In this document: positions 1 to 25,100 of the stretch, piece by piece
How positions within the stretch are numbered: position 1 is the stretch's first letter
Layout of the letters: every line of letters begins with the position of its first letter
Assembly (NCBI GenBank): GCA_048213135.1
Contig: PS015022.1
Span: 294,915-325,629, forward strand
DNA from: Reclinomonas americana ATCC 50394
Taxonomy: Eukaryota
Direction of reading: 5' to 3'
DNA: 30,715 nt
Position numbers and translations under genes: made by a program
The notes under the pieces: model-generated
The model's database searches: none
Seen by the model: only the letters and a program-made list of their open reading frames with translations
What the model was told of the DNA's origin: nothing

Positions 1-3000
1 ACTCTCGCAAACTTGCTGGGCGAGGCTGTGCGCTTGCTGCGTGCGAAGAGTGGAGACGGGGCACTGGAGATTGTGGGGGTGGAGAAGCCGATGGAATTCG
101 ACCTGGAGGATGCACCGGTGACGAAGCTGAAAACGCTGGGCATCAAGGCCTCCACGCATCTTGTGGTCCGTGTGAATCTTGGCGCCGCGCTGTCGTCGAG
201 TGGAGGAAGTGGGAGGTCTGTGCGTGTGCACTTTCTTCGTGTCGCAATGCGCGCACGCCACTCACTCCTCTGCGTCAACAACAGCACCTCGGAGCGCGAA
301 ACGCGGTGTGTGCATGTGTCCCGTGAGGTGTCGCCACACACACTCTTCTTGACACTGACTGAGCGCGCAGCATGATCAACTCGCAGCGCATCGACATGGC
401 TTTTGAGGTCGTCGAGGACGCGATTCGTCTGCGCTGTCAGCGCGAATTGGCGCAGTTCAGTCGCGATCATCCCAACTTTGATGTGCGGGCGTGGGTTCCG
501 ACGCACGAGCCGCCTGGCATGGACAAGCAGACTCTCAAGCTGTGGCGATCGCGACACAGCCCATTGCACCACGAGTGCAACCTGTACGTCAAGCTGTACA
601 AGGAGGTGTATGCGCCGATGCTGGAGTGGAAGGCACAGTTCGACGCCGACCCCGCCTCCGATCCGCAGTGCGACGCCTTCGACATGACCGCAATGTGGAC
701 CATACTGACCAACGGAGGATACGTGGAGGAGACGCCGAGTTCTACTGTGTGCGCCTCGTTTCGGCTGCTGAGTGCGGGCCGGGAACGACATGCAATTAAC
801 TGTGCACACGATGTTCGCAACAAGTTGATGCACGGACACCAGTGGCAATCGGCGGAAGTGCAGGCGGATCTGGCAGACGATGGTGTGTTCCTCCACATCA
901 TCTCTCGGCTTTCGTTGACGGCCGATGAGCGTGCAGTCTTTGTCAATCGCATTCGTGAAGCGCGGTTTGTGCAGCTGAATATCAGCACGTACGAAGAGCG
1001 ACTGCATCGATTGGCGTTGCGCGAAATCGAGTTTTATCGATGCGATGAAACATTTCAGAAGAGTATGCAGACCTACGTTCCGCTGCAATGCTCACATGAG
1101 CGTGACGTCTCCGCGAGAGACAAGATGACGGATCTGGTGAAGGAGGTGGATGCTTTCCTCTCCGCCTCCGACACCACCCACCGCGTGCTGGTGCTGTTTG
1201 GCAATAGTGGCGCCGGCAAGACCACCACCATGTCGGTGCTAGCCGAACGAGCATGGCGGCAGCGGCAGGCGGGAGAGAGTCGACGAGTGCCGGTGCGTGT
1301 GCCTCTCGGCGCGCTGCGCAATGCCGACGAGCGATTGTTGGAGGAGGCACTGGAGCGGCTGACGCCCGAATTTGGTTTCGACGAAGACATTCGACGACTG
1401 AAGGATGAACCGTTGCTGTTGCTGTTTGACGGGTACGATGAGTTGTATCGTGGTGTCAATCTGTTTGTCAAGAACCAGTTGGATGCATCCGTATGTCGCG
1501 ACTTGAAGGTGATTATCACCTGTCGAGGCGACTATGCGTTGACGGCACTGGGTGGTATCGCCAATTATCCACGGTTCTTTGCACCAATGGACAGTCACAA
1601 TCAGATGCGCGTGGATCAATTGGTAGAACGGCATATTGCGTCGTTCAACGAGGCGCAGATTGAAGAGTATTTTGACCGATTGGTGAACGTCGACATTGAC
1701 AGCGGTGGAGCCGCGGATGGCGGCGCTGGCGACATGTCGCAGTGGGCCACAGCCGCAGAGTACGTGACCGCGCTGCATGAAGTGCGAGGTCTGAAAGAGC
1801 TGGTGTCGAATCCGTTCATGCTCTCTGTGGTGGCTCGTGTGCTGCCGGCGCTGGTGGCGAGTGGCGTGCATCGCCCGACCCGGTGTGACGTATTTGACCG
1901 CTTCATTCGACAGTGGATCAAGAGAGAACAGGAGAGGCAGACCGGCCTCAATGCCTCGCGGGTACCGAGTGAGGAGAAGTGTCTCGCGTTCTGTGAGGGA
2001 CTTTCACGAGTGATGCACGAGCGAAATGTGGTTCGTGTGTCTGTGACGGAGAGTCAGTCAAGTGACGGAGAAGAAGGGGATGACTTTGGCGGTGCCCCAC
2101 TCGCTGCTCAACAGGAGGAAGAGGGACCATATGACAAGTTCCTCGGCCACAAGAACGAATATGTGCGGGTGTGCTGCCCGATTGTGCAACGCTATGGGTC
2201 AGAGCAGTGGGGGTTCGTGCATCTGTCGTTGCTGGAGCATTGTGTGGCACGGCATGTGTTTGCGTGGGAGACCTGGAAGGAGGAGAGGAGGTTGATGGTG
2301 CATGATCTGCAGCAGCATGTGCTGGCAGTGCGACTGCTGAACGACAGACCATCGTTGGTGGAGCAGATGGCGGAGGTAGTGCGACGGTCTCGTGCTTTGC
2401 AAAAGAGACTGTTAGAGGTGATTGAGTTGTCACGGGAGGTGGATGAGGAACGAGTGGTGACGGCAGCCGCGAATGCAGCGACGGTGTTGTGTGTGGCGCA
2501 GGTGTCGTTCAGCGGACGGGATCTGTCAGGTGTGCGAGTGAGGGGTGCGGATTTGAGGGATGCGGTGATGCACAAGACGGTGTTGAGGGAGGCCGACTTG
2601 CGCAAGGCAAATCTCAGTCGTGCCTTCTGTCGGGAAGCCGACTTTACGCAGTGCAAGATCGATGGTGCGTGGTTGTCGGAGAGACCGCTGGAGGGACATC
2701 AGGGCAATGTGCGATCGGTGGTAGTGTCAGCTGACGGAAGCCGGATTATCAGCGGGAGCTGGGACAAGACGGTACGAGTGTGGAACGCAGACACGGAGCG
2801 GGAAGAATTCTGCCTCGAGGGACACACCGAGCCGGTGCAAGCGGTGGCGATTACGGTGGACGGTAGCCGCGTCGTGAGCGCCGGTCAGGACGCAACACTT
2901 CGTGTGTGGTCCCTTCCGGCTGCCGATTCCGCTGCGCATCGCTGTTACAATCCCGGAGCGGACAAGATCTTTTCGGTGGCGGTCACTCGTGACGGCCAGC

Positions 3001-5043
3001 ATGTTGTGTGTGGCTGCAAGGATGCCACGATTCGGGTTCTGCAATTGAGTGACGGTCAGGAGGTGCAGTGCTTGCGCGGGCACGACGGTCACGTGTGGTC
3101 TGTTGTGCTGACTGCCGATGACACGCACATCGTCAGCGGCAGTGGCGACAAAACCGTACGAATGTGGTCACGAAGTGACGGTCGCGAAGTGCGCCGATTC
3201 GAAGGTCACAATCTCGCTGTGATGAGTGTGGCTGTGTCGCCTGATGGGCGCCTGATGGCCAGCGCCACACGTGACGCACGGATTCCTGCGGAGCAAGTCG
3301 AAGCGTATGCTGCCGCACGGGGCGTGATGCTGAGAAATGGTGGGAAGATCGTCCGTGGATCTGTTCGGCTGTGGAGTGTCGAAACGGGCGCTGAGCTGCA
3401 CTGCTTCGAAATGCNNNNNNNNNNNNNNNNNNNNNNNNNNNNNNNNNNNNNNNNNNNNNNNNNNNNNNNNNNNNNNNNNNNNNNNNNNNNNNNNNNNNNN
3501 NNNNNNNNNNNNNNNNNNNNNNNNNNNNNNNNNNNNNNNNNNNNNNNNNNNNNNNNNNNNNNNNNNNNNNNNNNNNNNNNNNNNNNNNNNNNNNNNNNNN
3601 NNNNNNNNNNNNNNNNNNNNNNNNNNNNNNNNNNNNNNNNNNNNNNNNNNNNNNNAGCCCAGGTCCAGTTTCGAAGCTGTGGCGTTCAGTCCCGACAACA
3701 AGTACCTGGTTATTGGCAGTCAGGACTTTAGCGTGCTGGTGTGGTCGCTGGACGAGGACATTGGTCGCGATGTGAAGGTCCGGCGTTTCGAAGGCCACAC
3801 TGACAAGGTGCTGACGGTGACAGTCTCGCCGGACAGTCGATTCGTGATCAGTGGCAGTATCGACCAGACCATTCGCAAGTGGTCGTTGCAGGAGGGCGGT
3901 GTTCGTCGAGTGGACCGTCACGCTCGGTCGGTGCGGGCGCTGGCTCTTTTGCGCGACGCCGAAGGATGCGTGACGCATATTGTCAGTGGCAGTGATGACT
4001 GTGTGTTGCGAATGTGGGACGTGAGCACCGGCGAGGTGTGCAGTCAGCAGCAGCGCAGAGGACAGATTCGATGTGTAGCTGCTGCTGGCTTCCATGTGGG
4101 GAACACGTGGTCGCGACGTGTGGTATGTGCCAGCAAGCACAGTGGTATCACCTCGTTTGCGGTCAGCGCCAATGGCGAACTGACGGAGAGATGGCACGAG
4201 TCAGTGTGTTTGGATAAAAACTCGTTTCACTCGGCTATCATCACACCCGACAATCAGTACGTGCTGGCAGGCGCCACCAACGGCACGGTGTATCAGTGCC
4301 GTATGAGTGATGGCAAGTTGGAGGCGCTGTTTCACAATCACAGCGACTGGGTGTTGGCACTGGCGACCACCAGGGACGGTCGCTTCTTGTTCAGTGGAGG
4401 TGGCGAAGACAAGTTGGTGTTGATGACGCGCCTCGACAACGGCCTCGTGGTGCGGCGCTTTGTCGGCCACGAAACGTATGTGCGCTACATTATGCTGACG
4501 GCCGCTGAGGATGTGATTATCACCAGCTGCGACGACTCGATGCTTCGATTCTGGTCTGTGGAGACTGGCGAGCTGCTTCGTGTCATTGACACTGGCGGGC
4601 AAGGAGACACCAGCATTCGGTGGCTTGCTCTCTCGACTGATGGTGAGACCATCTTTGTTGCGCGCTCCGACGGCACGGTGCAAGGGTGGTCGTGCACGAC
4701 GTCGACCACACCTCCTGAAATGGTGTGCCGACTCGACGGTCACGTGAATCAAGTGCAGTCGATTTTCCTCGACGACAAGAGCAGCGTGCTAGTCAGCGGC
4801 GGAGACGACTGTACTGTTCGCTGGTGGGAGAAAGAGTGGTGCGTTGTGTTGTTCTCGTTGCTGCTTCGCGGCTTGGCCTGATACATTTTGTCCCTTTTTG
4901 TGTGCAGTGACGAGCGTGGCGGCGGGTACCTGCTGACGCGAGTGTTTGGCCTGTTCAGCAGCGACTTGGAGGCGAGTAAAGGCCTGGATCCGGCGCTGGC
5001 GACGCGCTCTGGAGTGAGTGTTGCACGGCTGCCATCCTCATAA
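1..5043 (+). CDS. STAND/NLR-like NACHT-WD40 (NWD) protein: putative Ubl/UBX-like N-terminal exon, HEPN domain, NACHT NTPase, pentapeptide repeats, ~14 WD40 repeats; 5'-partial
   Basis: Walker A GNSGAGKTT (~1200-1226), Walker B LLLLFDGYDEL, sensor VIITCR and NPFML are present. Pentapeptides (ADLRD/ADLRK/ANLSR/ADFTQ) lie at ~2510-2670 and GH...W[DNS] repeats at 2690-4830. The HEPN-like region has FDMTAMWTILTN and RNKLMH (816-833). Predicted introns 216-370 and 4839-4907 keep frame; stop TAA 5041-5043. The frame change between the two long ORFs falls in gap 3415-3655. Confidence 0.9.
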
Positions 5044-5082: not shown

Positions 5083-5614
5083 TCACGCTGTCGTTTGTGG
5101 TAGTGCGAGCTGCAGCACTGGCGCCGTTTGCTCCAGCTCAGTCCACTGCCAGTAGGAGAGGTAGGCACGATGAAAGTCGGCAAACGTGCCAGCGTCAATG
5201 TGCTGCCGCGCGGCGCGCACGAATCGACAGCAGTGGTCCAGATTGTGGCTGCGCACACACGAGCATTAGTGAGGAAGAAACAATGACTCGCGGGAAGGAA
5301 GGAAAACGCAACATGGCCAGCAGAATGGGGGCGAGCATCTCCTGCGTGTTGTGCAGATGGTGCAAGTAGGCCTTGGTGTGTCGATCGGAGAGCGGTGCTC
5401 CGTGGCCCAATGGCGAGGCGTCGTCCCGGAAACGCAAATGACGGGCATTGACTTTTGGCTGCGCCATGGATGCCAGCAACTCGCGCCGTGGCAGCGAGCG
5501 ATGCACGTCGGTGGACAGGAGCAAATCGATCTCCTCCGACGAGAAGTCGGTGGGGAACGTGAGNNNNNNNNNNNNNNNNNNNNCGCCAGCTCGATCGGGT
5601 ACTCGGTCAGCAGC
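5083..5614 (-). CDS. QTRT2: 3' part of queuine tRNA-ribosyltransferase accessory subunit (QTRT2-like)
   Basis: Spliced translation LLTEYPIELA-(gap)-LTFPTDF...FRDDASPL...HTKAYLHHLHNTQEMLAPILLA|IHNLDHCCRFVRAARQHIDAGTF matches the TGT C-terminus (HTRAYIHHL...LL.HN). Intron 5249-5312; stop TGA at 5083-5085. Confidence 0.85.
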
Positions 5615-6461: not shown

Positions 6462-9400
6462 TCATCGTTTCTCGCGGTTTAGGAAGCGCAGGCTCAAAAA
6501 GGTGAGCACCTTGCTCGCTGCAATGATGGCAATCATATAGCCGCAGGAGGGCCACTTGTCGTCGACTGAAATCGCGTAGTACTGTTGCAGTAGCTCTTCG
6601 CCATCAGGGCAGTGCGGCGTGGGCGGACAGCGGAAAGTGCGATTGGCCATTTCTAACACGTACAAGAGAGTGGTCACGACGACACTGGAGGCGATGAATG
6701 CAGAAAATCATGATCACTTGTACATACCGGAGATCGCCAAGGCTTGAAAACCCCAGCGAAAGAATGAGAGGTACTCGATGCCAGTGTAGTGGAAGTATGA
6801 AGGCACCTGCACTCTCAAATGAGTAAGTCCATTGAGAAACAAAAAACTCAGCTTCTTGCATGCAGCAGCACCTCGACGATGAAGAACTTGGAGAACAAAA
6901 TCTAAGACCGCGTCGGCGATGATGCGATAAGTTATGAGAACCATGGACGATCGACAAGCTCGTACACCACGATTGCAGTTGCATTGACACGAACCATCAT
7001 GGACAGCAGCATAGCGACAGCAGCACTCGCAACCGTAAAGTTTGGCGTGATTGACGCTGCGTAGACGTCAGTCACAGTGGCCATAACTTCAAGATTGCGA
7101 TAGTTATTGGCTCACCAATAAACTGGCAGGTGGAATAACCGGCGTTCAAGATCAGGAACGAGGCGAATACAAAGAAGGCAAACCTGCCGAAGTCGGCTTG
7201 AAATCCCATCTGTGTACGTGTGTCAACTTAATCTTTCTCAGTTGAAGAAACACAAATAGAGTCGTCAAACCATGAAATAGGCCACCACCGTGAACGAGAG
7301 GCTCTCCGCGACCGACACAACCAAATCGCAAACAGTAATGGCAATGAACATTGACGACGTGCGGTACAGCCGAGAAGCTCGCTCCCTCTGGAAGCGCGCA
7401 CGCTCTTCAATCACTGCAAAACGAGCAGAACGACGACCATGAATGTGTGTGGGCTATGAGAAACACTGATACACACAAGCAATTATCATCAATCGACGAA
7501 CGACGAGGCATTGTGGGTATCGAAGAGAGTCCAAAGAAGGTGACGTTGAAAAAGATGGCCTTGAACTTGTCCAGCGCTCTCGCCAAGTCGGTGAGCTCAA
7601 GTCCCAAGTATACAAGGCCGACCATTAAGGCAATGATGATTGACCCAGCCAGCCTGCGCAAGATTTGTTCACAATGACACATACACAACCAACTTCTCGG
7701 ATATCGCGTCTCCACACACCGAGACCAGATCACCGAGAACTCCCGAAGTGAGTACCTCCAGATTCGTGAACTCAGGATGACAAACTGTTGCGGTATACAC
7801 GCTCTCGGTAAATAATCACACAGCGCCAAGTACAAGTGAACTGCACCCGAGAAAGGAACGAACTTCCTTAAGAATGCCGTTGGGATAAGCAGCCTCCTGT
7901 AGATCACACGCGTAATGCGTCAAACCATCATGCACAAGAGGACCGTCTGTATCGCAACATCTCTCGCATGTACATACCTCGATGGCCTCTAGTCTTTTTG
8001 CCGATGTCGCGTACACGAGCCCTGAACCAGTAGATCATGTGGACAATGTCAGAACTCTTGAATACTCCTGCAACGGGAAAATGCTCACGCAACTGTTAAC
8101 AAACTGGTCAAAGTGTGCTGCATCCCCACCCGGGACTGGAGCTCCTTCTTGCATTTGCTGCCCCTGTCCAGGTTCAACGAAGCGGAAAGGAGGATCCTCA
8201 TTACCGTAGTCTTCGGGCCGTCCCTGAATCCTCTGAAGCAATCCCAACACCCTGTCAGCAGGATTCAACAACGCGCCGCCCTCCTCGATGTCGGAGTCTT
8301 GATTTTGTCCACGTGGAATCAACCAACGGGCCCCGCGGCCGAAACCTAAAGCTTCGCCTTGGGCAACGACATCGGCCACGGAGGAAAGCGCTTGCTTCGG
8401 TGGCCCAATGTAGATGGTTCGGCCGCCTTCTGCGAATGTTGCAACATATATATATGATGATGCTCAGCGCACGTCACTCTTCGGGCCGGCGGGGCATAGC
8501 AACAGACAACATTGTTGCGCAACTTGCCAAAAGTACTACCATGTCAAACATGTCAAAGACTTCCTCAGAAGGTTGGTGGATTGTCATGAGAGCGAAACGT
8601 GACTGTCTGCGCCCCATCACCCACGCTTGAATCCGATGCACCAGAACACGAGCGCTGTTGCCGTCCAGCCCTATGGTGCTGTCATGAGCAAGAAAACTAA
8701 AGAGCTCTGATGTGCTGCAGCAATAATTCTTGCTGGCTGCGCATATGTGCATACTGCTCTCTGAAACTCGTTGCGCACGGACATGAATGCGCTGCANNNN
8801 NNNNNNNNNNNNNNNNNNNNNNNNNNNNNNNNNNNNNNNNNNNNNNNNNNNNNNNNNNNNNNNNNNNNNNNNNNNNNNNNNNNNNNNNNNNNNNNNNNNN
8901 NNNNNNNNNNNNNNNNNNNNNNNNNNNNNNNNNNNNNNNNNNNNNNNNNNNNNNNNNNNNNNNNNNNNNNNNNNNNNNNNNNNNNNNNNNNNNNNNNNNN
9001 NNNNNNNNNNNNNNNNNNNNNNNNNNNNNNNNNNNNNNNNNNNNNNNNNNNNNNNNNNNNNNNNNNNNNNNNNNNNNNNNNNNNNNNNNNNNNNNNNNNN
9101 NNNNNNNNNNNNNNNNNNNNNNNNNNNNNNNNNNNNNNNNNNNNNNNNNNNNNNNNNNNNNNNNNNNNNNNNNNNNNNNNNNNNNNNNNNNNNNNNNNNN
9201 NNNNNNNNNNNNNNNNNNNNNNNNNNNNNNNNNNNNNNNNNNNNNNNNNNNNNNNNNNNNNNNNNNNNNNNNNNNNNNNNNNNNNNNNNNNNNNNNNNNN
9301 NNNNNNNNNNNNNNNNNNNNNNNNNNNNNNNNNNNNNNNNNTTGGTTGGCGTCCCGAGGCCGCAGGCGGCGACACTACGAAGGAAACCGAACGAAGGGGA

Positions 9401-11529
9401 GCCGGCTGCGGCGGAGTGACACGAGCCATCAGAGGCTGGTCCATCAGACGCACGAACTCAGCCGAAACCACCGTGTCCGGTACGCCGGTGCCCGCCTCCA
9501 GACGCGAGTAGGTGTGCACCATGCGCTCGACGCGCCAGTTGAACAGGAATGCCACCTGCTTGACAGAGAAGCCAAGCAGACGTGCCGCCGAGCAGGCACC
9601 TGACCGAAGTGACGAGCCACTGACGGCACCCGACGACTGGCGAATGTGACCAACTGGGGATACTGATATGGCCGCATCCACCGCCGCACGAACCGCCACC
9701 CGCACAGCCTGTAAGTCCATCGGGCCGCCACGGGCGGATGGGAAAAGCGGAGCGCCTGGACCATCACCGTCAGCCAGTCGAGAAGCCACCCACGCTTGCA
9801 GACGCGATAACCACGGAGACCCGCGCCAGTCGCCGTACCACAGCAAAGACCGAGGAGGTTGAGGACGAAGGCGCTCAGTCTTCTCCACCGGAACCGTGAA
9901 CCGGGACACCTTGCCGGCGTTGTCGAATGCAACATCGCACAGCCTGATGCTGGCCAAAGAACCGGGGCGGAGACCGAGGAAGAAGCCAGTGACCACCAGG
10001 AGAGCCTGCGCCTCCGAGCACGACAGCGACGATGGCGAAGCACGAAGGAGCACCGAAACCACACGCCAGTCCAGAGCGCGCGACCGATGCAGCGGGTCGG
10101 CCGCCAGCGCCACAGCCTCCGTGTCCCACGGATCCGACGGTGTCGCCGCCAAACCCGCGACCATGTCCTGCTTGTACAAAGCCGAATAGCCAGCCATCGC
10201 CTGCGTCACCAGGAAGTGCTTGGTAGGATCGTCAACGCTCAGCACCCGGTGAAACCGTGAAATGGCCGACAACAAGTTGCGGATGGTGGAAGGGGCATAC
10301 GCCACCTCTCGACCACTACGGCACCGCTCCAAAATCGCCAGAACGCTCGANNNNNNNNNNNNNNNNNNNNAAATAAACTCACCTGTTGTCGGTTCATCCA
10401 GGAACAAGGCAGAAGGTTCTCGAAGCAATTCCACAGCAACGGCAAGCCTCCTTCGCTCACCTGCGACGGCAAAAGAACGGCATGAAACCGGCGAGTGCAA
10501 AACGCCGCAAAGGGGAACGCAGCAGTGATATACAGCGCACGCACCGCCAGATAGCCCTCGTTTCATCACCGAGCCGACTTGGCTGTTTGCCTTGCCTGTT
10601 AGGCCCATAATCCTCATTACTTCGTCCACCTGCGCTACGTACAAGTACCGACGAGTTTAGTGTAACTATACTCGCTCGTTGTCGACGAAGTGGCACGAAC
10701 CTTTGTGCTCTGTTGACGAAGTCGCCCAACATATTCCAGCGTCTAAGACCACAAACAAGAGGATGCCGCTCAACAAAAGCGATCGACGAAGCCGCAGGGA
10801 ACCATTAACGGTAACGCACCTCGCGCACTGTCAGTACTGGATTCAGCGTGTCGTCCTGTGTGAAAAATCACGTCCACGTTTAGATGGACGTCCAGTCGGC
10901 TAGCAGAAGTGATGGATGTACCTGAAGAACGTAAGCTGTGGACCGTTGAGGCATAGTATTACACACTTGGGTGACAATTATGATGGATTTGTTTACGGCA
11001 CCTGAACAAGCTTTGAAGGATCGGCCTACATTAGTGAGCGACTGCTGGTTGACCAAGATGTCGTCAGAATAAGTGTCTCTCGCTCGGCCAGTAACTGCAG
11101 TCCAAGCATGTATGAGGGGTATGATTTCGATCATCGCAACACGACGAAAGACTAAGGGAGGACGCACGTGCGTCCAGCAAACAGGTTTTCCCAGCACCGC
11201 TGGGGCCTGCACATGCAACAAGTGCTTAGCAAAGTGGAACGCAGCGCCCACACATTCACAGCACTCCCTTCACCGAGAATAGCAACGGTCATCCCCGGCC
11301 TCACAAATCCGACGGTGTTGTTCAACAGTGTCATTGTCTATCGACATGCATGCGTGATTAGAGACAACGCTGCGACACTGAAATGCACGAAACAGCACGC
11401 AGCTGTGTTGCGTTGCTTGATCGAGCGGCGTACGTTTTTCCAAGTCAACGTACATGTAATTGGATCCAAAGTCGGCAAATGCTCGAGCTCATGCATGCGG
11501 TGGTACTCGCCACTGGCACCTGCAGCCAT
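6462..11529 (-). CDS. ABCG (White-like) half transporter, multi-exon; start codon uncertain
   Basis: Spliced motifs in order: LTWKNV, AILG|PSGAGKT (Walker A), AYVLQ|DDTLNPVLTVRE, RGLSG|GERRRLAVAVELLREPSALFLDEPTT|GLD, TIHQPS, LLA|KGGRTIYIGP, NPAD. The TM domain follows (ERARFQRERASRLY; EYLSFFRWGFQALA) and ends FLNREKR*. Confidence 0.92.
9342..10350 (-). mobile_element. DIRS/Ngaro-type tyrosine recombinase ORF (partial, gap-flanked) inside an ABCG intron
   Basis: Open frame with core-binding segment YAPSTIRNLLSAISRFH...DPT and catalytic-domain motifs FFLGLRPGSL (R), VEKT (K), PLFP, SGSSLRSG (HxxR position), FNW and HTYSR (Y). It lies within intron 8671-10382, which splits DEPTT|GLD. Confidence 0.88.
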
Positions 11530-12143
11530 TTCCACGCGAATTCTGCTGATCGCAACAGGAACACGCAAGATGCTGCTGCGCCAGCAGAGCGCTGCGTACG
11601 CACGCACAAACAGTACACAAACACATGCAAACGCAGCGCAGCGCGCGGTGAGGGTACGCGAAATGAAAACAAGTGGAGAAACGAGTTCGGGTGTTCACCG
11701 CGCTGCAAGGGATCAAAAACGGAACGCGCTGCGCTGAAAACACATGCGAGGACACGCAGCGCTGAGCTCGTGGCGGACATGGCGGACATGTGGCGGACAA
11801 TACTTGATCCAACTTTATACTNNNNNNNNNNNNNNNNNNNNNNNNNNNNNNNNNNNNNNNNNNNNNNNNNNNNNNNNNNNNNNNNNNNNNNNNNNNNNNN
11901 NNNNNNNNNNNNNNNNNNNNNNNNNNNNNNNNNNNNNNNNNNNNNNNNNNNNNNNNNNNNNNNNNNNNNNNNNNNNNNNNNNAACCATCTTTTCGTTGTT
12001 TGTGTGTCGGAGAGAAGGTTACACCTGTGCCACACAAACCCAACTACTCTTTACCGTTCCACGATCCACTTAGTGGCGGTCCGTTGCTCTATTCGCTTGC
12101 TCGATCTGTGAATCTCTTCAGTGCGGCCATCTCCCTTCACGTC

Positions 12144-12668
12144 ATGTCGGCAGCCGCATCCTCGTCCGATGTGCAACGCGCTGGTGCTGGCGGTAGCGTT
12201 AGTGACCCGGAGGAGGTGGAGTCTATGTTCGAGGCTGAATTGGATGATGCCTCAGCCGAGCGACAGAGTCGTGACGAAGGGCGGCAGTCGCGCCCGCCGT
12301 CCCGCGCAGGCTCGCGCTCACGGGCCACGGGCGGCGCTCGGCTCTTGTCTGCTGAGAGCCAGCAAGTGTGCACGGTCGTGGAGGCCAGGGTGGAAGCCAA
12401 GATGGAGTCTGTTCTGGAGAAGTTTTCGCAGGCCATGCGTGCTGACGTGGAGCGCTTGATTGCATCATCGATTGCGTCATCGCTTGCGTCACCGCTTGCG
12501 TCATCGCTTGCGTCACCGCTTGCGTCATCGGCCGGCGCAGTCAGCTCGGGTGTGCCCGCTGCCACGGGCGCCTCCGTGCAAGCGTCTGGTCAGTCTGCCG
12601 GCTCGAGTGCCGCCGCTGCCACGGCGGCCCAAGCCTCGGTTCAACAGCAGCAGCAACAACAACAACAA

Positions 12669-12699
<31 letters not shown>

Positions 12700-13586
12700 T
12701 GGTCCAGGAACACGATCTCGCCACAGCAGCGGCGGGTGAGCAGCTTCTTGCGGACCTGCAGGCCGCTCGTGATGCGGCCGAGCAGTGGGCCGAGTCCAAG
12801 TTCTGGGAGAAACCCGCCAGTACCGACGTAGCTGGTGTCGTGGGCAACTTCAATCACCTGGCGGAGGGCATTGTGGCGGCGTTTGCCGGCGAACGAATGA
12901 GCGACACGCTGGCCTTCTCGTCGTCGGCAGTTTGCGGCTTCAACCCGGACACGGCCAGGGCGCTGGACGGCCCTCATGTACAGCTGGCTGCAGGCGCGCT
13001 GCGGATGTTGTACGAGGAGGTCACGCAGGTGGTTTATCACGGCCTGCTGACGATGTCGGAGTTTCTGCAAGAGGACGGCGATTCGGTGGACCTCGTGCAA
13101 GTGGTGGATCACGTGTCACGCATTCTGGAGCGGATGTGGTTCTGCGTCAGCCTGCTGGCGGTGGCCGGTGACCGCCCTGGACACGTGTTTTCTCAGTCGG
13201 CTCTGATGGAGTTCCGCAACGAGGGCCGAGGCACATCTTTGCCACCTTCGCTGGCCGCTCTCATCAATCGGCGTGTTCGTGAGGATGCGCTGCTTGGTCG
13301 CGCGGCTGGCACGTCGTCGTCAGCTTCGGTTTCGGCAGCCGCGGCGGCTACGGCGGCGGCCGCCCTGGGAGGAGTTGCCACGCCAGTTGTTTCGTCGTCG
13401 GCTTCTCTTTCTGGGTCGCACCCGTCGGCCTCCAAGTCTCGGCGTCTCCGCCGCCAGCGCAGCAAGCAGATGCAGCGGGCGGGCTCGTCTGCGCCAATGA
13501 GGCCTGCGCCTACGGCTCCCCGCCAGCAGTCGTCCTCGCGCCAGCCGGGGGAACCCGGGGGCGGCGGGCCGGCCTCCGCCCACTAG
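12144..13586 (+). CDS. Gag-like ORF1 of the retroelement
   Basis: Long intronless ORF directly upstream of RT. Ser/Ala-rich linkers, 12-nt repeats (ASSL/ASPL), Q19 tract at 12642-12698, helical core and basic tail (SRRLRRQRSK). The call is positional; no CCHC knuckle seen. Confidence 0.7.
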
Positions 13587-13651
13587 AGGTCGGCAGGCCT
13601 CGTCGCAGAGCTGTGCCCGTGGTGGCAGGTACGGCAGCGCGGCGAGGCCTG
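13584..13651 (+). promoter_or_regulatory. Candidate stop-codon readthrough signal: TAG + 7-8-nt spacer + extended stem-loop
   Basis: CAGGCCTCGTCGC (13594-13606) pairs with GCGGCGAGGCCTG (13639-13651; 13 bp, one G-U). GCTGTGCC (13610-13617) pairs with GGTACGGC (13628-13635; two G-U). The terminal loop is 10 nt. Confidence 0.6.
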
Positions 13652-14927
13652 GACACACGCGTCGGCGGACGTTCGCTCCGTCGTCGCGTTCGGGGCTCGC
13701 TTGGAGTGGGGTCCGGGCGGGCCTCCGCCACCATTTCGTCTGCCGGAGCGTCCGGTTCCCGGCAGATTGTTGCCAGCCGTTCACGCGGAGCTCGATCGAA
13801 TGGTTTCCATCGGTCTTGTCCGCGAGGTTGCTCCGGGGAGTGCGCGGTTTTGTTGCCCTGCCTCGGCCATCGTGAAAACGAAGGCCGATGGCTCGGTCAA
13901 GACCCGCATTGTCACGGACCTGAGGCACATCAACCGTCACCTGTCTGTGCGCCGTTATCGCCAGGAGGGCCTCAGGGAGGTGCGGTCGTTGGTGTCGCAG
14001 GGCGACTTGTTCGGCGTGGGCGACGTGCGCGATGCCTTCGTGCACTGCGCAATTCATCCGGAACACCAGCAGTACCTCGGATTCGCCCTGGCTGGCCGCG
14101 AGTTCGAATGCACCGCCGCACCCTTCGGTCTGCGCCACAGTCCGATCCTGTGGAAGAAGATGATGGACGTGGTGATGCTCGATTTGCGTGCCCAGGGTGT
14201 CCGATGCGTCTGTTTTGTGGACGACGTGTTGCTGATCGCTCACTCGCAGTCGGAGTATCGTGCGGCGAGGGAGTTGTTTCTCAGCACGTTGGCCAAATAC
14301 GGCGTGCAGATTGCGCCCGGCAAGATGCCGTCCAGAGTGGGCTCGTCGACAATCGAGTACCTCGGGATGGTGGTCTCGTCGGAGGCGCCTGCACCGTCGT
14401 TCGCCGTCACGCCCGCCGTCTGCGCCGACATCCGGCAGCGCGCCGCCTCGCTGGTGCGCGACTGGGAGTCTGGTCGCACACGCTTCAGGGCGAGGCGCAT
14501 CAAGTCGGTGGTGGGCAAGCTGCAGAGCGTGGAGTTGGCCGTCCCCTCAACGCGTCTCCACACACGCGAACTGCACAATTGCCTCGGCGGCAAGTTCGGC
14601 AACCTCCGTGTATCTCTCTCCCTCCAGGCGGTCAGAGACCTGCGATGGTGGGCGGAGTTGGACGGTACGCGAGCGTGGAAGCCAATGGTTCTTGCCCCTC
14701 TAACCGCGCCGATTCAGGTCTGGACGGACGCCTCGAAGCTCGGCTACGGGGTGGTCTTGGACAGCCTGCAGTTCGGCGCCGACTTTCCGGTCGAGTGGCG
14801 TGGGCGGTCGATCAACCAGCTGGAGCTGGCCGCTGTTCTGCTGGCCTTTCAGTCGCTGCGCGAGCGGCTAAGCGGTCGGCAGATCCTTTTGCGGTCAGAC
14901 AACTCGACCGTCATTGCGACTCTCAGG
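13587..14927 (+). CDS. Reverse transcriptase-RNase H (pol), 3'-truncated by gap
   Basis: RT motifs RIVTDLRHIN, DVRDAFVH, PFGLRHSP, FVDD, IEYLG; tether DLRWW; RNase H motifs WTDASKLGYG, INQLELAAV, RSDNSTV. Same frame as gag. Confidence 0.93.
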
Positions 14928-15655
14928 NNNNNNNNNNNNNNNNNNNNNNNNNNNNNNNNNNNNNNNNNNNNNNNNNNNNNNNNNNNNNNNNNNNNNNNNN
15001 NNNNNNNNNNNNNNNNNNNNNNNNNNNNNNNNNNNNNNNNNNNNNNNNNNNNNNNNNNNNNNNNNNNNNNNNNNNNNNNNNNNNNNNNNNNNNNNNNNNN
15101 NNNNNNNNNNNNNNNNNNNNNNNNNNNNNNNNNNNNNNNNNNNNNNNNNNNNNNNNNNNNNNNNNNNNNNNNNNNNNNNNNNNNNNNNNNNNNNNNNNNN
15201 NNNNNNNNNNNNNNNNNNNNNNNNNNNNNNNNNNNNNNNNNNNNNNNNNNNNNNNNNNNNNNNNNNNNNNNNNNNNNNNNNNNNNNNNNNNNNNNNNNNN
15301 NNNNNNNNNNNNNNNNNNNNNNNNNNNNNNNNNNNNNNNNNNNNNNNNNNNNNNNNNNNNNNNNNNNNNNNNNNNNNNNNNNNNNNNNNNNNNNNNNNNN
15401 NNNNNNNNNNNNNNNNNNNNNNNNNNNNNNNNNNNNNNNNNNNNNNNNNNNNNNNNNNNNNNNNNNNNNNNNNNNNNNNNNNNNNNNNNNNNNNNNNNNN
15501 NNNNNNNNNNNNNNNNNNNNNNNNNNNNNNNNNNNNNNNNNNNNNNNNNNNNNNNNNNNNNNNNNNNNNNNNNNNNNNNNNNNNNNNNNNNNNNNNNNNN
15601 NNNNNNNNNNNNNNNNNNNNNNNNNNNNNNNNNNNNNNNNNNNNNNNNNNNNNNN

Positions 15656-16439
15656 GAGCCAGCCCGCGCGCGCCAGCTCGATTGGGTACTCGGTCAGCAG
15701 CAGATCGACGCCGAGCGAGATGGCATGCAGCATGGACACTGCATCACGAGCAGTGTGAGGGCGATTTTTCGTTGATGGCTGCGAGAGATGCAAATGGTAC
15801 CTGGACCGTCAATGCCGTCGACCAAGAGTAATCTGTCGGCCGAGAGTGCTTCCTGTTGCCGCTGACGTCAGTGCGACAATAGGTGGCAGAGACGGAGACA
15901 GAGGAGTTCGGAGACGCACCTTGACGCACTGCACCCGTCTTGTTACACTCGCCGGTTCATCGCCCGTCGACAAGCCGAGCAGTGCCATTCCTGCGTGGCA
16001 AGCAAAATGTCAGTTGACTCAAGAGCGAGGCGTGCAGGGGAGGAGCGAGAGAAGCACGTCATGCACCACAGATCCCGGGCACGGCAGCCAAGGCGGCGAC
16101 ACCGCGCTCGAAATCCACATCGGTGCCCACATTCGGAATGGACGACATGAGCGGCATCGACGGCGCGTCGGCTGCAACGGCAGCAGAGAACGAAGCACCC
16201 CAGCTGCGGAAACACACAATCAGCAGGCGAACGCAGGAGGGAGTGCGCTGCATTTCTCGCAAAAAAACATACCTGACTGCGCGATCCATGGCCTTGCGTC
16301 CACGATTCTTTCCCGTGTACACCCCCGGAACATCACTCAGCGACGCCGCCACATCCACACGCGCACGCACACACGCCGCCGCGTACTCTTCATGCCCAAT
16401 CTACATGCAACAACTCCATGAGCACCACCACCAACGCAA

Positions 16440-17031: not shown

Positions 17032-19552
17032 ATGAAGACGCCAAGGCGGCCGCTATGGTGGCCGCCTTTTCTGCTTTCGTTGCTGGTGTTAGTGGTGGCG
17101 CTTGTTGTTGTATTAGTGGAGGCAGAGGAGGAGTGGAGTGGGGAAATGGAGCCCTTTGTGCGGGAGAAGGCGGCGACAGTGGAGGAGAAGTTGGATGAGG
17201 ATTGGCAGGATGAGGATGGTGCGCAGGAGGAGGAGGAGGATGCGTGGACGTTGGTGCAGCCGAGTGGCGCGGGGACTGTGGCCTTGGCGAATGATTTGCA
17301 TGAGGTCTCTCTCTCTCAGGCAAAAGTTGCTGTGAGTCTGTGTGCTCATGGTTGCGCGCAGGTTTTCGAGTCAATGGTGTCGTCTGAGCAGGTGGGGAAC
17401 CTGCATGTGTTGAACTGGTGAGAATTGAGCGAGACTGATGTTATGTGTGGTTTTTTGTGCAGCCGGTGATCCAGCCAACGGTTCCGGCTCTGAGCCCACC
17501 AGCGTCCACTGTGCAGCAGCCGCTGATTGCCAACGCCGCGGTCGGTCGCTACTATGGTGGAAGCAGTGGAAACTACTACGGCAGTGGAAACTACTATGGG
17601 AGCGGCAACAACGGCAGCGGCAACTACTATGGGAGCGGCAACTATGGCAGTGGCAACTACTATGGGAGCAGCGGCAACTACTATGGTGGTGGTGGTGGTG
17701 GTAGTGGCTACTATCGAGGCAGCGGTCTCGGCTACTACAACAACAATTACAACAACAACTACTACCCACCGCAGAAGAAGAGCGCATGGAGCAGCTTCAA
17801 GTCGGGCCTGAGCAGCGCTGGCTCGTGGACGGCATCCAAGGCCAAGAGCGCCGGTTCGTGGACCGCCGACAAGGCCAAGAAGGGCGGTCAGTGGACGGCG
17901 GAGAAGGCCAAGAAGGGTGGTCAGTGGACGGCGGAGAAGGCCAAGAAGGGGGGTCAGTGGACGGCGCAAAAGGCCAAGAGCGCCGGTTCGTGGAGCAAGC
18001 AGAAGGCCAAGGAGGCCAAGGCTGCGGCGCAGCGCAAGTACGAGCGAGCCAAGGCGGCGTGGGAGAAGCGACAGCTCAACAAGGAGAAGAGGAAGTTGGC
18101 GGAGGAGCGCCGCAAGCTGCGCATGTACAACCAGCAGCTCAAGGACATGGCCAAGAAGCAGAAGAACTGGGCCGCGCGTCAGCAGGAAAAGGCGGAGCGC
18201 GCTGCGCGTGGGCCTGCCAACAAGCGCGCCCTAGACAAGATCAAGGACTGTGTGCGCACGGATCGCAAGGCCGAGTCCAAGTACAAGAACAAGATGGATG
18301 AGTTGAACAAGCGCCTGACGAAGCTGGGCAAAAACTCGGCGGCGGCTGCCGAGTTGCGCAAGGAGGCTCGCCGCATCGAGGAGCTGCACAAGGACGGCCT
18401 GAGACGCCAGCAGGCCAAGTTCAAGCAGAGCCTCAAGAAGCTGAAGGACAGCAAGAAGAAGGACCTGGCGAAGGCCAAGAAGCAGTGGGCGCTGCAGTGC
18501 AAGCAGGCGGCGGCCAAGAAGCTTGCGCTGAAGCGCCGTGCGGCCTTTGCTCGCAAGTGCCAGCTGAAGGATCGACTCGTGGACGCACTGCGTCGTCGCA
18601 TTGCCGACATGCGCGAGTCGATGGCGGACCTGCGCATCAGCAACAAGCAGCTGCGTCGGGACCAGCATGTGAAGCTGACCGACATGTTGTCGCGCAAGTT
18701 GGCCACGGCCCAGCAGGCGCTGTCGCAGCTCTTGCAGACGGAACGCGATCGCGTGCGGCATCAAGTGCGCGAAGTCGTCGAGGAGCGCCTGCGCAACTTG
18801 CAGTTTGCGGTGCGTATTTTGTGTGTGTGTGATGCAGTGTTTGGTGCCGATTGCTCAAACTCTTCTTTTTATCGCAGCGATCGATGCGAGCTGCAAAGAG
18901 CGCCAAGGTCGACTACTGCCTTCCACTGGAGCACATTGTGTCGCGACTGAAGCGCTCGCAAAAGGCATGCGCGGCCGGCTCGTCCGAAGCCGACTGCTCC
19001 GACTTGGACAACCGCATGCAGGTCATCCGAGACGAGCTCAGCACGTGTCGCGGCATCAGTTGCGTGAACATTGACATGCCGGCAAAGGCGGTGGTTGGCT
19101 CATATATCGCTGGTGTACTGCGCAGTGGCGGCTCGAGGATTCGTCCCGCCGCCGCCGCCGCCGCCTCCGAATGCCCCCAAGGCCGGACCAGTGACCAGGG
19201 TGCCGCCCAAGGCCGGACCACCGCCACCAAAGGCACTGCCGCCCCCACCACCGGCGTATCGTGCACCTCCGCCACCGGCCTATCGTGCACCGCCGCCCCC
19301 TCCGCCTCGCCAGTACGCACCACCGGTCCCGTATCGTCCTCGAGCGCGGCCGCCACCGCCGAGTTGCCACCGCTGGAAATACGAGCCGGTAACTAACTCG
19401 TCACTCCTTAATGCGTCTCTCTCGCGAATGCTCACTCATCCGCGCAGAGCGAATTTGGCTTCCCTTACGATGGTGCCGCACGGTATCGCTCGGCGCCGCC
19501 ACCATCGTCGGCACCGGCACCGGCACCAGCAGGCGGCTACTATCGTGCGTGA
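17032..19552 (+). CDS. Secreted modular repeat protein (Gly/Asn/Tyr repeats, 11-mer repeats, Lys-rich coiled coil, Pro/Tyr tail); function unknown
   Basis: Signal-like FLLSLLVLVVALVVVLVEA, then an acidic segment. Predicted short introns ~17306-17360, 17392-17462, 18810-18877, 19059-19125 and 19389-19447 join the ORFs in frame. Strong codon bias; stop TGA 19550-19552. Confidence 0.8.
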
Positions 19553-22162: not shown

Positions 22163-25100
22163 CTAAAAGAAATCGTCAAACAAGTTCTGTGTGGCGGCAC
22201 ACGCATGCAAGTGAGTGAGTGAGCAGTTCAGCAAGAGCAGCGTGGAAAGGAGACACTGACCTGCGAAGCAGCGGGTTTCGGAGGCTGCGCCGCCGCCGCC
22301 GCTGCGGGTTTGGGAGGTTGCGCCGCGGGGCCAGTCGCGGGCTTGGCGGGCATTGGCGGACCAAAGTCGTCGGCAAAGTCACCGAAACTCGACGCAGCCG
22401 CGGGGGCGACGGCGGCCGGTGGAGCGGCGGTGGCCGGCTTGGGCATTGGTGGGCCAAAATCGTCGGCAAAGTCGTCAAAGCCACCACCACCGCCACCACC
22501 GGCTGGAGCTGGTGGCTTACTGGCCGCTGCCGGCAAGGGCTTGCTGGCCGGAGCCGCTGGCATTCCAAAGTCGTCGCCAAAGGCAAACGAGCTGGCGGGC
22601 TTGGCGGCAGCGGGTGCCGGTGCTACTGCAGCCGCTGCTGGTTTCGTCGGCGCCGGGCCAAAGTCGTCGCCAAAATCGAATCCACCGCCGGGCGACGCAA
22701 CAGCCGCCATCGCCGGCACCGACGATGGCGGTACGGGTGTCGCGTGGTGGGAGGCAGGCTTCGCAGCAGGCACAGGTGCCGGACCAAAGTCATCACCAAA
22801 GTCAAAAGCGCCGACAGCAGGCTTGGCGGCGGCGGCAGGAGCGGGTACTGCGGCACCACCAGCCGGCTTCACCGGCGCCGGTCCAAAGTCGTCGCCAAAA
22901 TCGAAACCACCACCCGGCGACGCCACATTGGCCACCACCGTTGAGGCTGTACGTGCGGGTGCTGCCGCTGCTGCCGAGGCGGGCTTGCTGCTGATGCCGA
23001 AATCGTCGCCAAAGTCGAACCCACTGCTGCTGCTGCTGCCGCCACCCTTGCCACCATTGTTGGCCATCGGTGCCGGTGCCGAGGCTGCCTTGTTCTTCAT
23101 GCCACTGCCCATAAAGAGGTCGTCGTCCAGCGACGAGACTGCAGTTGTGACCGCCGCCGTTATTGGCGCCTTGCTGGCCGTCACACCAAAGAGACTGCTG
23201 CCAAAGTCCAGCGTGGGAGCCCCAATTGAAGGCGGCGGTGTAATCTTGGTCGGTGTCGACAGAGGCGAATCGAGGTTGACGTCAAAGTCGAGGCTCGACG
23301 TGCTGGTGTGATGCTGCAAGGGCAGTGCGCCACCAAAGGCCACTCGTCCCGCGCCCGCATGCCCACCAATGCCGTCTCCGGACTGCGATGGGAGGAAGGT
23401 GAGCCACGTGATACAAGGAGAGGGCGTGTCATTATTCTTCATGCAAACCTTTGGTGGACCGCCGAAACCCCTGCACATGAAGACACAAAAGGTAAGTCGC
23501 GAGAGAATTATGATCGACATGCTGGTGCAGACGCGACGCAACATGTCGCCGAATGAGACACTGGGCCGATGATCGCCAGCGGCACCACCACTGCAATTCA
23601 ACGCATGAGAAACCAAACTGCAGTGCAAGGCGACATAGAGAACGCCGCGCAACTCGGGTGGTGCGTCAGCCTTGGAAGAGCCGTTGCCGCCACGTCCGCC
23701 TCCAACGGACGACGAGCCAGTGGCCGCATTGTGTGCCAGGGAACCCGTGTGTTCCGAATTGAGTGCAAGGAACGAGCGCAAGTCTTCCCACAGCGAGAGG
23801 TATTGCTGCTTGGTAAAGTTCTCGACAAAAGCGCCCGGGTCGGTGCGAGCCCTCTTGTCGGTGGCACTGAACACGCTCTGTTGCAAGTGGAAAATCGACT
23901 CGTCGCCTGCGTCGAACTTATGTCAGGCACGACCAACAACACAGAGCGAATGGCGAAAAAAACACCAACCGAGAACACGAATGTTGGTGAAGAGGCCGTT
24001 GGTGAGGTCATTGAACCACTCGTAGAATCGGTCGCGGAACACGGCCAGAATGCGCCACGACGGACCACGAATCTCCCATCGCAGTGTGAACGACGCTCGT
24101 CTCCGTGCATCCTGCCACAGTCGATGAGCACACTGCTTTGGGTACGAGAAAATGAAAGGGGAAAAAAGAGACGCACCGGCGCCACCATCGCGCCGAGGAC
24201 TTCGGTACCCTGCATAAACATGTAGACGGGTTCGCCGAACCACGTGCTCGACGCGAATGACATCTGTCGATAACAGAAGAGTATGTTACTCAACCATTCT
24301 GTCTGCATTCGCACGAGCCACATTACATACCTGCACTCCGATGCCGTTCATGTACACGCGCTCAATGACAGTCTCGAACGGCGACTCCCACAGAGCGTCG
24401 ATCAGCAGGTCGATGACCTGCATGTGTGTTTCACATGTCAGCTACTTCTCACCAAGAAACACACAAGCCCACTGAATGACCTTTTCTGCCGGGCAGTCGT
24501 CCTCGTCGCCCAGAACCAGCGGCAAGTCAGCCTGTCACACCACCAAGCACATATGAGCACACACTTTGTGCGCAAAATTCCCTCTCTCTTTCTCCCTCGC
24601 CATACGTAACCTGCGCGGTAAAAGCGGCCGGCAAGCGGGTCCACACGCGGAGGAAATCGGCCGGCGTCGCCGTCACCAACGGTTTCAGCAGATCGTTGAC
24701 CGTCATCTTCAGCGGCTGACAGCGGACAGTGATGGTATCGGCATCGTCACGCGCCAGCACGTCGGAGAACGAAGCATCGCTCTCGCTCTGCGGCGCCGCC
24801 GTGGTGAGGTTGCGACCGTTCGACGCGTGGAACGTGAGCACCAGATGGAAGGCGTTGTCGGCCCAACCACCGACAATGTAGGTCCACTCGCAGATGCACT
24901 GGGCGCCGACGTCGAGCTTGGCGAGACTCTGTGGAGAGGGAGAGGGAGAGGGAGAGGGAGAGGGAGAGGGAGAGGGAGAGGGAGAGGGAGAGGAGAGGAG
25001 AGGAGANNNNNNNNNNNNNNNNNNNNGGGGGAAGGGAGAGGGAGGGAGAGGGAGGGAGAGGGAGGGAGAGGGAGGGAGGGAAGCGTGAGAATAGAGCGGG

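Follow-up and report, generated by a model that had tools for sequence, protein, structure and literature searches.

Possible hairpin-stimulated UAG readthrough between the gag-like and pol reading frames of a DIRS-like retrotransposon in Reclinomonas americana

Gammaretroviruses are known to read through a stop codon between gag and pol, and the same has been proposed for some long terminal repeat (LTR) elements. In this study, a possible case was examined in a DIRS-like retrotransposon located in a 30,715-nt stretch of the Reclinomonas americana ATCC 50394 assembly (GCA_048213135.1, contig PS015022.1, positions 294,915 to 325,629 of the forward strand). This stretch is called the window below, and all positions refer to it. 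A gag-like open reading frame (ORF) and a pol ORF share one frame in the element and are separated by a single UAG codon, and a hairpin predicted to be exceptionally stable begins after a spacer of 7 nt. A sequence-only reading of the same DNA had described this arrangement as a gammaretrovirus-style readthrough cassette.

In murine leukemia virus (MLV), Gag-Pol is produced by UAG readthrough at the gag-pol junction, with an 8-nt spacer and a compact pseudoknot, according to the portion of the article considered here (PMC3159437). As in MLV, a UAG separates gag from pol within one frame at the window locus, a structure follows after a purine-rich spacer (about 8 nt), and the proposed output, Gag-Pol at a low ratio, would also be the same. 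The two systems differ in that the MLV signal depends on a compact pseudoknot, while the fold predicted here is a plain hairpin in two parts, and in that MLV cleaves Gag-Pol with its own protease, whereas the element has none between gag and reverse transcriptase (RT). The gammaretrovirus-style cassette is borne out in its UAG, shared frame, spacer and downstream structure, but the predicted structure is a plain extended hairpin, unlike the pseudoknot of MLV.

Structure-stimulated readthrough with a spacer of 7 to 9 nt and a stem of 12 or more bp has been reported for alphaviruses, furo-, pomo- and tobraviruses, and others (Firth et al. 2011, PMC3159437). In the sections of that article used for the comparison, this class shares with the window an in-frame stop between coding regions, a 7- to 9-nt spacer, a long stem lying within the coding sequence that follows, and production of the polymerase as a fusion, which for the window is a proposal. 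The class consists of RNA viruses with mostly UGA-C, whereas the window contains a retrotransposon with UAG-A. The window signal is closer to this stem-loop class than to MLV. The Ty1/copia LTR element Tca2 of Candida albicans has a gag-UGA-pol arrangement with a predicted pseudoknot, as given in the relevant part of its description (PMC2194720). Tca2 and the window element are both retrotransposons in which a single stop, followed by a predicted structure, interrupts a frame shared by gag and pol; Tca2 differs in being an LTR element with a protease and an integrase.

DIRS1/PAT-like elements resemble the element in gene content, having a gag-like ORF followed by RT-RNase H and then by a Dam-like methyltransferase (seen here in the relatives), with no protease. 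They also share a long ORF overlap over pol, and a tyrosine recombinase (YR)-like ORF lies nearby here, in agreement with the part of the survey that covers these elements (PMC3266345). In contrast to the window, the elements are described in the publications considered here with three ORFs, overlapping or separate, and with no mention of a single in-frame stop followed by a 3' hairpin. In the literature searched, which did not include earlier Goodwin and Poulter work or Gao et al. 2003 on LTR-element recoding, we found no description of readthrough, or of any pol translation mechanism, in YR retrotransposons (DIRS, Ngaro). The portions considered of a DIRS overview and of the VIPER/TATE, fungal, Xenopus and Dictyostelium papers contained nothing on pol translation, and DIRS elements were not mentioned in the first 300,000 characters of a large recoding review.

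Layout of the gag-pol junction and its hairpin

The window, a draft scaffold rich in G+C, contains seven N gaps, and the junction lies on a single contig of this scaffold (11983-14927). Two ORFs, 11808..13586 and 13587..15758, formed one frame that was split by a single TAG, and they were interrupted by the N gaps at 11822-11982 and 14928-15655, respectively. The gag-like frame was already open from 11985, at the edge of the N gap, through 13583. As far as the assembly shows, the copy looks intact. The features of the junction are as follows.

12144 to 13583, plus strand: gag-like ORF1, 480 codons from the first ATG at 12144
13584 to 13586, plus strand: in-frame UAG between gag and pol, in the context CAC-UAG-A
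13587 to 14927, plus strand: pol ORF; RT domain, about 13896-14372; RNase H domain, about 14703-14912
13587 to 13799, plus strand: pol N-terminal segment, 71 codons without an in-frame ATG
13587 to 13593, plus strand: spacer of 7 nt, AGGUCGG, with purines at 5 of 7 positions
13594 to 13651, plus strand: extended RNA hairpin within conserved pol coding sequence, codons 3 to 22

Both the sequence and the ORF translations agreed with the earlier claim that gag ends in CAC-TAG and that pol continues in the same frame; the codons downstream of the TAG are AGG TCG GCA GGC. The first in-frame ATG of pol was located at 13800, which is pol codon 72. The peptide AWTHASADVRSVVAFGARLEW, which had been taken for part of a DIRS-like pol N-terminal segment, was found in the translation upstream of this ATG, as had been claimed. 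Near-cognate codons in the segment were CTG at 13611 and TTG at 13701. In Pfam, pol matched RVT_1 (1.2e-17, residues 104-262) and RT_RNaseH (2.4e-4, residues 373-442). The gag-like ORF had a basic, Arg-rich C-terminal tail. It showed no meaningful match in Pfam, no homologue in word-based searches (which were saturated by low-complexity candidates) and no match to the 156 fetched relative proteins in a local phmmer search, and the Atlas did not recognize it (best score, 0.76). Because Pfam gave nothing meaningful, ORF1 is named gag by its position and its basic tail alone.

RNA was folded with ViennaRNA, which makes no pseudoknot prediction. The minimum free energy (MFE) fold contained the hairpin described in the sequence-only reading at 13594-13651, with a lower stem of 13 bp (13594-13606 with 13639-13651, including one G-U pair), a 3x3 internal loop and an upper stem of 8 bp (13610-13617 with 13628-13635). 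The predicted fold also added a weak 3-bp extension within the spacer. The spacer had been given as 7 to 8 nt; the shorter value stands (13587-13593), and the eighth base, C 13594, is already the first paired base. The comparison of this fold with shuffled sequences came out in favor of the hairpin. The MFE of 13587-13660 was -45.5 kcal/mol, compared with -32.5 +/- 3.2 in dinucleotide shuffles (z = -4.05), and none of the 200 shuffles folded as stably. In addition, the hairpin persisted when folded in a 137-nt context, and it was the top inverted repeat of the element contig. Among 5686 overlapping 70-nt segments of the whole 30.7 kb, its stability ranked second, and it ranked fourth after G+C regression.

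As a synonymous control, the same 24 codons were re-encoded 2000 times using the codon usage of the element itself. The recodings had a mean of -30.9 and a minimum of -44.4, and none of the 2000 matched the native stability, thereby indicating that codon choice favors the structure. When this test was applied to 24-codon segments along gag and pol, the hairpin ranked first of 111. The apical loop (13620-13626) was an exact 7-nt complement of 13727-13733, and 78 of 2000 shuffles reached a complement of at least 7 nt. These two segments could form a pseudoknot or a long-range pairing.

The junction is also covered by a long ORF in another frame.

13283 to 14926, plus strand: overlapping ORF in the -1 frame relative to gag/pol, spanning the gag tail, the junction and all visible pol

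The -1 frame had no stop across 446 pol codons, compared with 10.15 expected, and 0 of 2000 codon-order shuffles were free of stops. Within gag, the same frame had 12 stops, compared with 13.5 expected. The first ATG in the -1 frame was at 14108, and the ORF matched no Pfam family. A long ORF overlap is reported in half of 28 DIRS1-like elements in the part of the survey used here (PMC3266345), and the -1-frame ORF may be an overlap of this kind. A -1 frameshift into the overlapping ORF was considered as an explanation for the hairpin and was rejected as unlikely, since no slippery heptamer of the form X_XXY_YYZ was found in the gag frame at 13200-13620.

Inheritance of the ORF boundary

Relatives of pol were collected in an exhaustive HMMER pass over 1.84 billion representatives. 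The pass returned 16930 proteins at E values up to 0.001, and the best ones were pol proteins of 600 to 700 aa. The closest relatives were P0002 (72% identity, 642 aa), P0003 (51%, 644 aa) and P0004 (49%, 640 aa). The window pol was collinear with P0002 and P0003 over 446 residues, with no frameshift or stop, and 32 of the 71 residues before the first pol ATG were invariant in the three proteins. The collinear alignment and the invariant residues indicate that the stretch between the stop and the first ATG is translated sequence. Counted from the position aligned with the TAG, the ORFs of the relatives started with M at +1 (P0002), +4 (P0003) and +6 (P0004). Because all three close relatives start 1 to 6 residues after the aligned stop, the ORF boundary appears to be inherited and not a private nonsense mutation.

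Start positions were surveyed further in the 104 of 156 fetched relatives whose alignment reached pol residue 60 or earlier. In 45 of these 104, the start lay between -20 and +19 residues from the aligned stop, and 10 extended 140 residues or more upstream of that stop. A close relative with gag and pol fused was not found among the 1.84 billion representatives, and proteins of fused gag-pol length occurred only at 30% identity or less. These distant fused forms suggest that Gag-Pol fusions are tolerated. As judged from the protein alignments, the gag/pol ORF boundary is inherited in the lineage and in much of the superfamily.

No second copy of the element was found in the window by tblastn, blastn or self-comparison, and no related DNA was found in viral contigs and genome contigs. 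A locus in a metagenome contig (L001) was considered as a relative and was rejected as a bacterial contig with a chance motif match.

Readthrough and alternative explanations

The explanation that we favor, tentatively and at a little short of an even chance, is hairpin-stimulated UAG readthrough giving an uncleaved Gag-Pol fusion. It builds on what is observed: gag and pol share one frame with a single stop, pol has no AUG ahead of conserved residues, the hairpin is exceptional and the boundary is inherited. To this it adds that the hairpin would act on termination, that readthrough would occur and what would become of the product. Translation of the element RNA would mostly end at the gag UAG; in a minority of ribosomes, a near-cognate tRNA would decode this codon because the stem-loop 7 nt downstream sits at the mRNA entrance of the ribosome paused on the stop. 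The ribosomes that read through would proceed in frame into RT-RNase H (and methyltransferase). Because no protease is encoded between gag and RT, Gag and Pol would stay joined, and the product would be an uncleaved fusion at a low fixed ratio to Gag. The geometry fits the structure-stimulated class, with a 7-nt spacer and a 13-bp stem compared with the reported 7 to 9 nt and 12 or more bp. The differing M positions of the relatives were also counted as support for readthrough. Leaky scanning to pol was tried as another route and was rejected as implausible, given the 17 ATGs that separate the gag start ATG at 12144 from the UAG.

More broadly, and held more tentatively still, the DIRS/PAT lineage may set its Gag:Pol ratio by hairpin-stimulated UAG readthrough, with a permanent Gag-RT/RNase H/methyltransferase fusion and a third product from the -1-frame ORF. 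If true, this would be a concrete answer, for one lineage, to how DIRS-type pol is translated from a gag-first RNA. It would bring tyrosine-recombinase retroelements into the range of structure-stimulated readthrough, alongside retroviruses, RNA viruses and a few LTR elements, and would give the YR-retroelement order its first translational recoding signal. It would also raise the question of how an uncleaved Gag-Pol works in an element that has no protease. The significance is moderate and of specialist interest, with the evidence coming from one copy.

Several points weigh against readthrough. Gag and pol have a 1 in 3 chance of lying in one frame by itself, and UAG-A is not known to be a leaky context. 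The relatives have M at or near the boundary (+1 in the closest), as would also be expected of a stop-restart start codon, and in the superfamily it is the norm for a separate pol ORF to begin near this point (45/104). Other very stable structures were found at about 13500-13586, 13655-13730 and 13835-13915, each of -42 to -47 kcal/mol. In the synonymous-recoding test, the segment at 13659 ranked second of 111, and the next segments (13656, 13841 and 13531) were also unusually structured, indicating that the whole junction region is rich in structure; it may be structured for some other reason. Back-translation of P0003 by hand suggested that the same stem is not obviously allowed there. The evidence comes from a single element copy, with its relatives known as proteins alone. 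For Tca2, the portion of the article considered here reports a minor promoter at the junction and, for the junction by itself, no readthrough in S. cerevisiae (PMC2194720). Taken together, the readthrough interpretation is plausible and partly supported, and it is unproven.

In the non-LTR element SART1, a downstream structure assists stop-start coupling, and this counts for an explanation by stop-restart or separate initiation, which we consider rather unlikely. Here, ribosomes would reinitiate beside the UAG, with the hairpin holding them, or pol would have an independent start at the boundary; the window copy, in which +1 is AGG and an AUG is lacking, would be either defective or a user of a near-cognate codon such as CTG 13611. 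This explanation agrees with the initial M of P0002, P0003 and P0004, located +1, +4 and +6 from the aligned stop, and with the many DIRS-like pol ORFs in the collection that start with M near this point, and the AGG of the window is one base from ATG. However, AGG is a very poor near-cognate start, and the window copy has no in-frame ATG across 71 conserved codons. In addition, the M positions of the relatives are mutually unaligned, as expected if the gene caller took the first start after the stop, and the M of P0004 could be a GTG start because it is aligned with a Val of the window.

It is less probable again that the layout is fortuitous or that the structures have another role, such as packaging, dimerization or cDNA priming, or are a by-product of G+C-rich dual coding with the -1-frame ORF, with pol made from a subgenomic or spliced RNA or the copy being inactive. 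The strong structures are spread over 13500-13915 and are not at the stop alone, and the significant overlapping -1 ORF constrains synonymous sites in the region; both observations are consistent with such a role, as is the one-third prior for a shared frame. The gag-pol junction region of Tca2 had minor promoter activity, according to the part of its description used here (PMC2194720). Nevertheless, the strongest structure of the element begins exactly at the spacing at which it would act on a ribosome at the stop, and translation of pol from an RNA of its own would still require a start codon ahead of 13611-13700, where none is present.

That an ancestral gag-pol fusion was split by a nonsense mutation in this copy alone, which the sequence-only reading had named as a case that would refute it, proved improbable. 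Proteins of fused length do occur among distant relatives (at 30% identity or less), where 10 of 104 have at least 140 upstream residues. In contrast, all three close relatives have their ORF start at this point, the search of 1.84 billion representatives revealed no close fused form, and the 446 aligned pol residues contained no further lesion. Finally, TAG as a sense codon of the organism, which would make gag-pol one ORF, is very improbable: reading TAA and TAG as Gln (table 6) lengthened none of the host ORFs 3334-4881, 17439-18950 and 22228-23922 and joined no host ORFs, the ORFs of the relatives are called as starting after the stop position, and the TGA ends of five of the five long ORFs checked, which would favor it, are expected by chance because TGA is 4.7 times as frequent as TAG among the window trinucleotides (TGA 443, TAG 95 and TAA 84).

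Type of element and its surroundings

The claim that the element is DIRS-like held as far as it was testable, on the basis of RT and RNase H of the Ty3/gypsy-related type in the single pol ORF of the window, the lack of room for a protease and a Dam-like region in the relatives. The proteins P0002, P0003 and P0004 contained RT, RNase H and then a Dam-like methyltransferase region, which matched PF05869 with E values of 1.8e-3, 5.3e-6 and 3.3e-5 in the three, all below the gathering score. The corresponding part of the window pol is not visible because the N gap at 14928-15655 cuts pol. The order RT-RNase H-Dam-like methyltransferase is the pol architecture of DIRS1/PAT-type elements in the part of the survey that describes them (PMC3266345). 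No aspartic protease was detected between gag and RT, where Pfam matched no protease family. The RT domain starts at pol residue 104, and residues 1-103 align with the N termini of the relatives, which leaves no room for a protease. These features point to a DIRS/PAT-type tyrosine-recombinase retrotransposon. The DIRS order is further marked by inverted terminal repeats with an internal complementary region or by split direct repeats; self-comparison of the window showed no repeat of the element, which N gaps interrupt at either end. A kinetoplastid TATE element was considered, as the Atlas listed Euglenozoa clusters, and was rejected on ORF order; TATE elements have the order gag, YR and RT/RNase H without a methyltransferase, as stated in the portion of the article considered (PMC6681497).

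Another mark of the DIRS order is a tyrosine recombinase in place of a DDE integrase, and a candidate recombinase was found upstream of gag.

9343 to 10350, minus strand: tyrosine-recombinase-like ORF, Phage_integrase E 0.005, below the gathering score

The recombinase is inverted in some PAT or kangaroo-type elements. In the window, the YR-like ORF lies on the strand opposite to gag, on a separate contig of about 1 kb with N gaps on both sides, and it showed no match in PDB. It may be the recombinase of the same element, that of another copy or a scaffolding artifact.

Other observations concern the assembly and the neighboring genes. A 31-nt match with 97% identity was found between 15671-15701 and 5584-5614, both within about 15 nt after an N gap, and it may be a repeat that breaks the assembly. 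A short ORF piece at 10371-10656 on the minus strand, adjoining a 20-N gap, matched the end of the ABC transporter ATP-binding domain (E 1.3e-5). At 363-4878 on the plus strand, a long intron-free host ORF contained WD40 and pentapeptide repeats and was broken only by an N gap.

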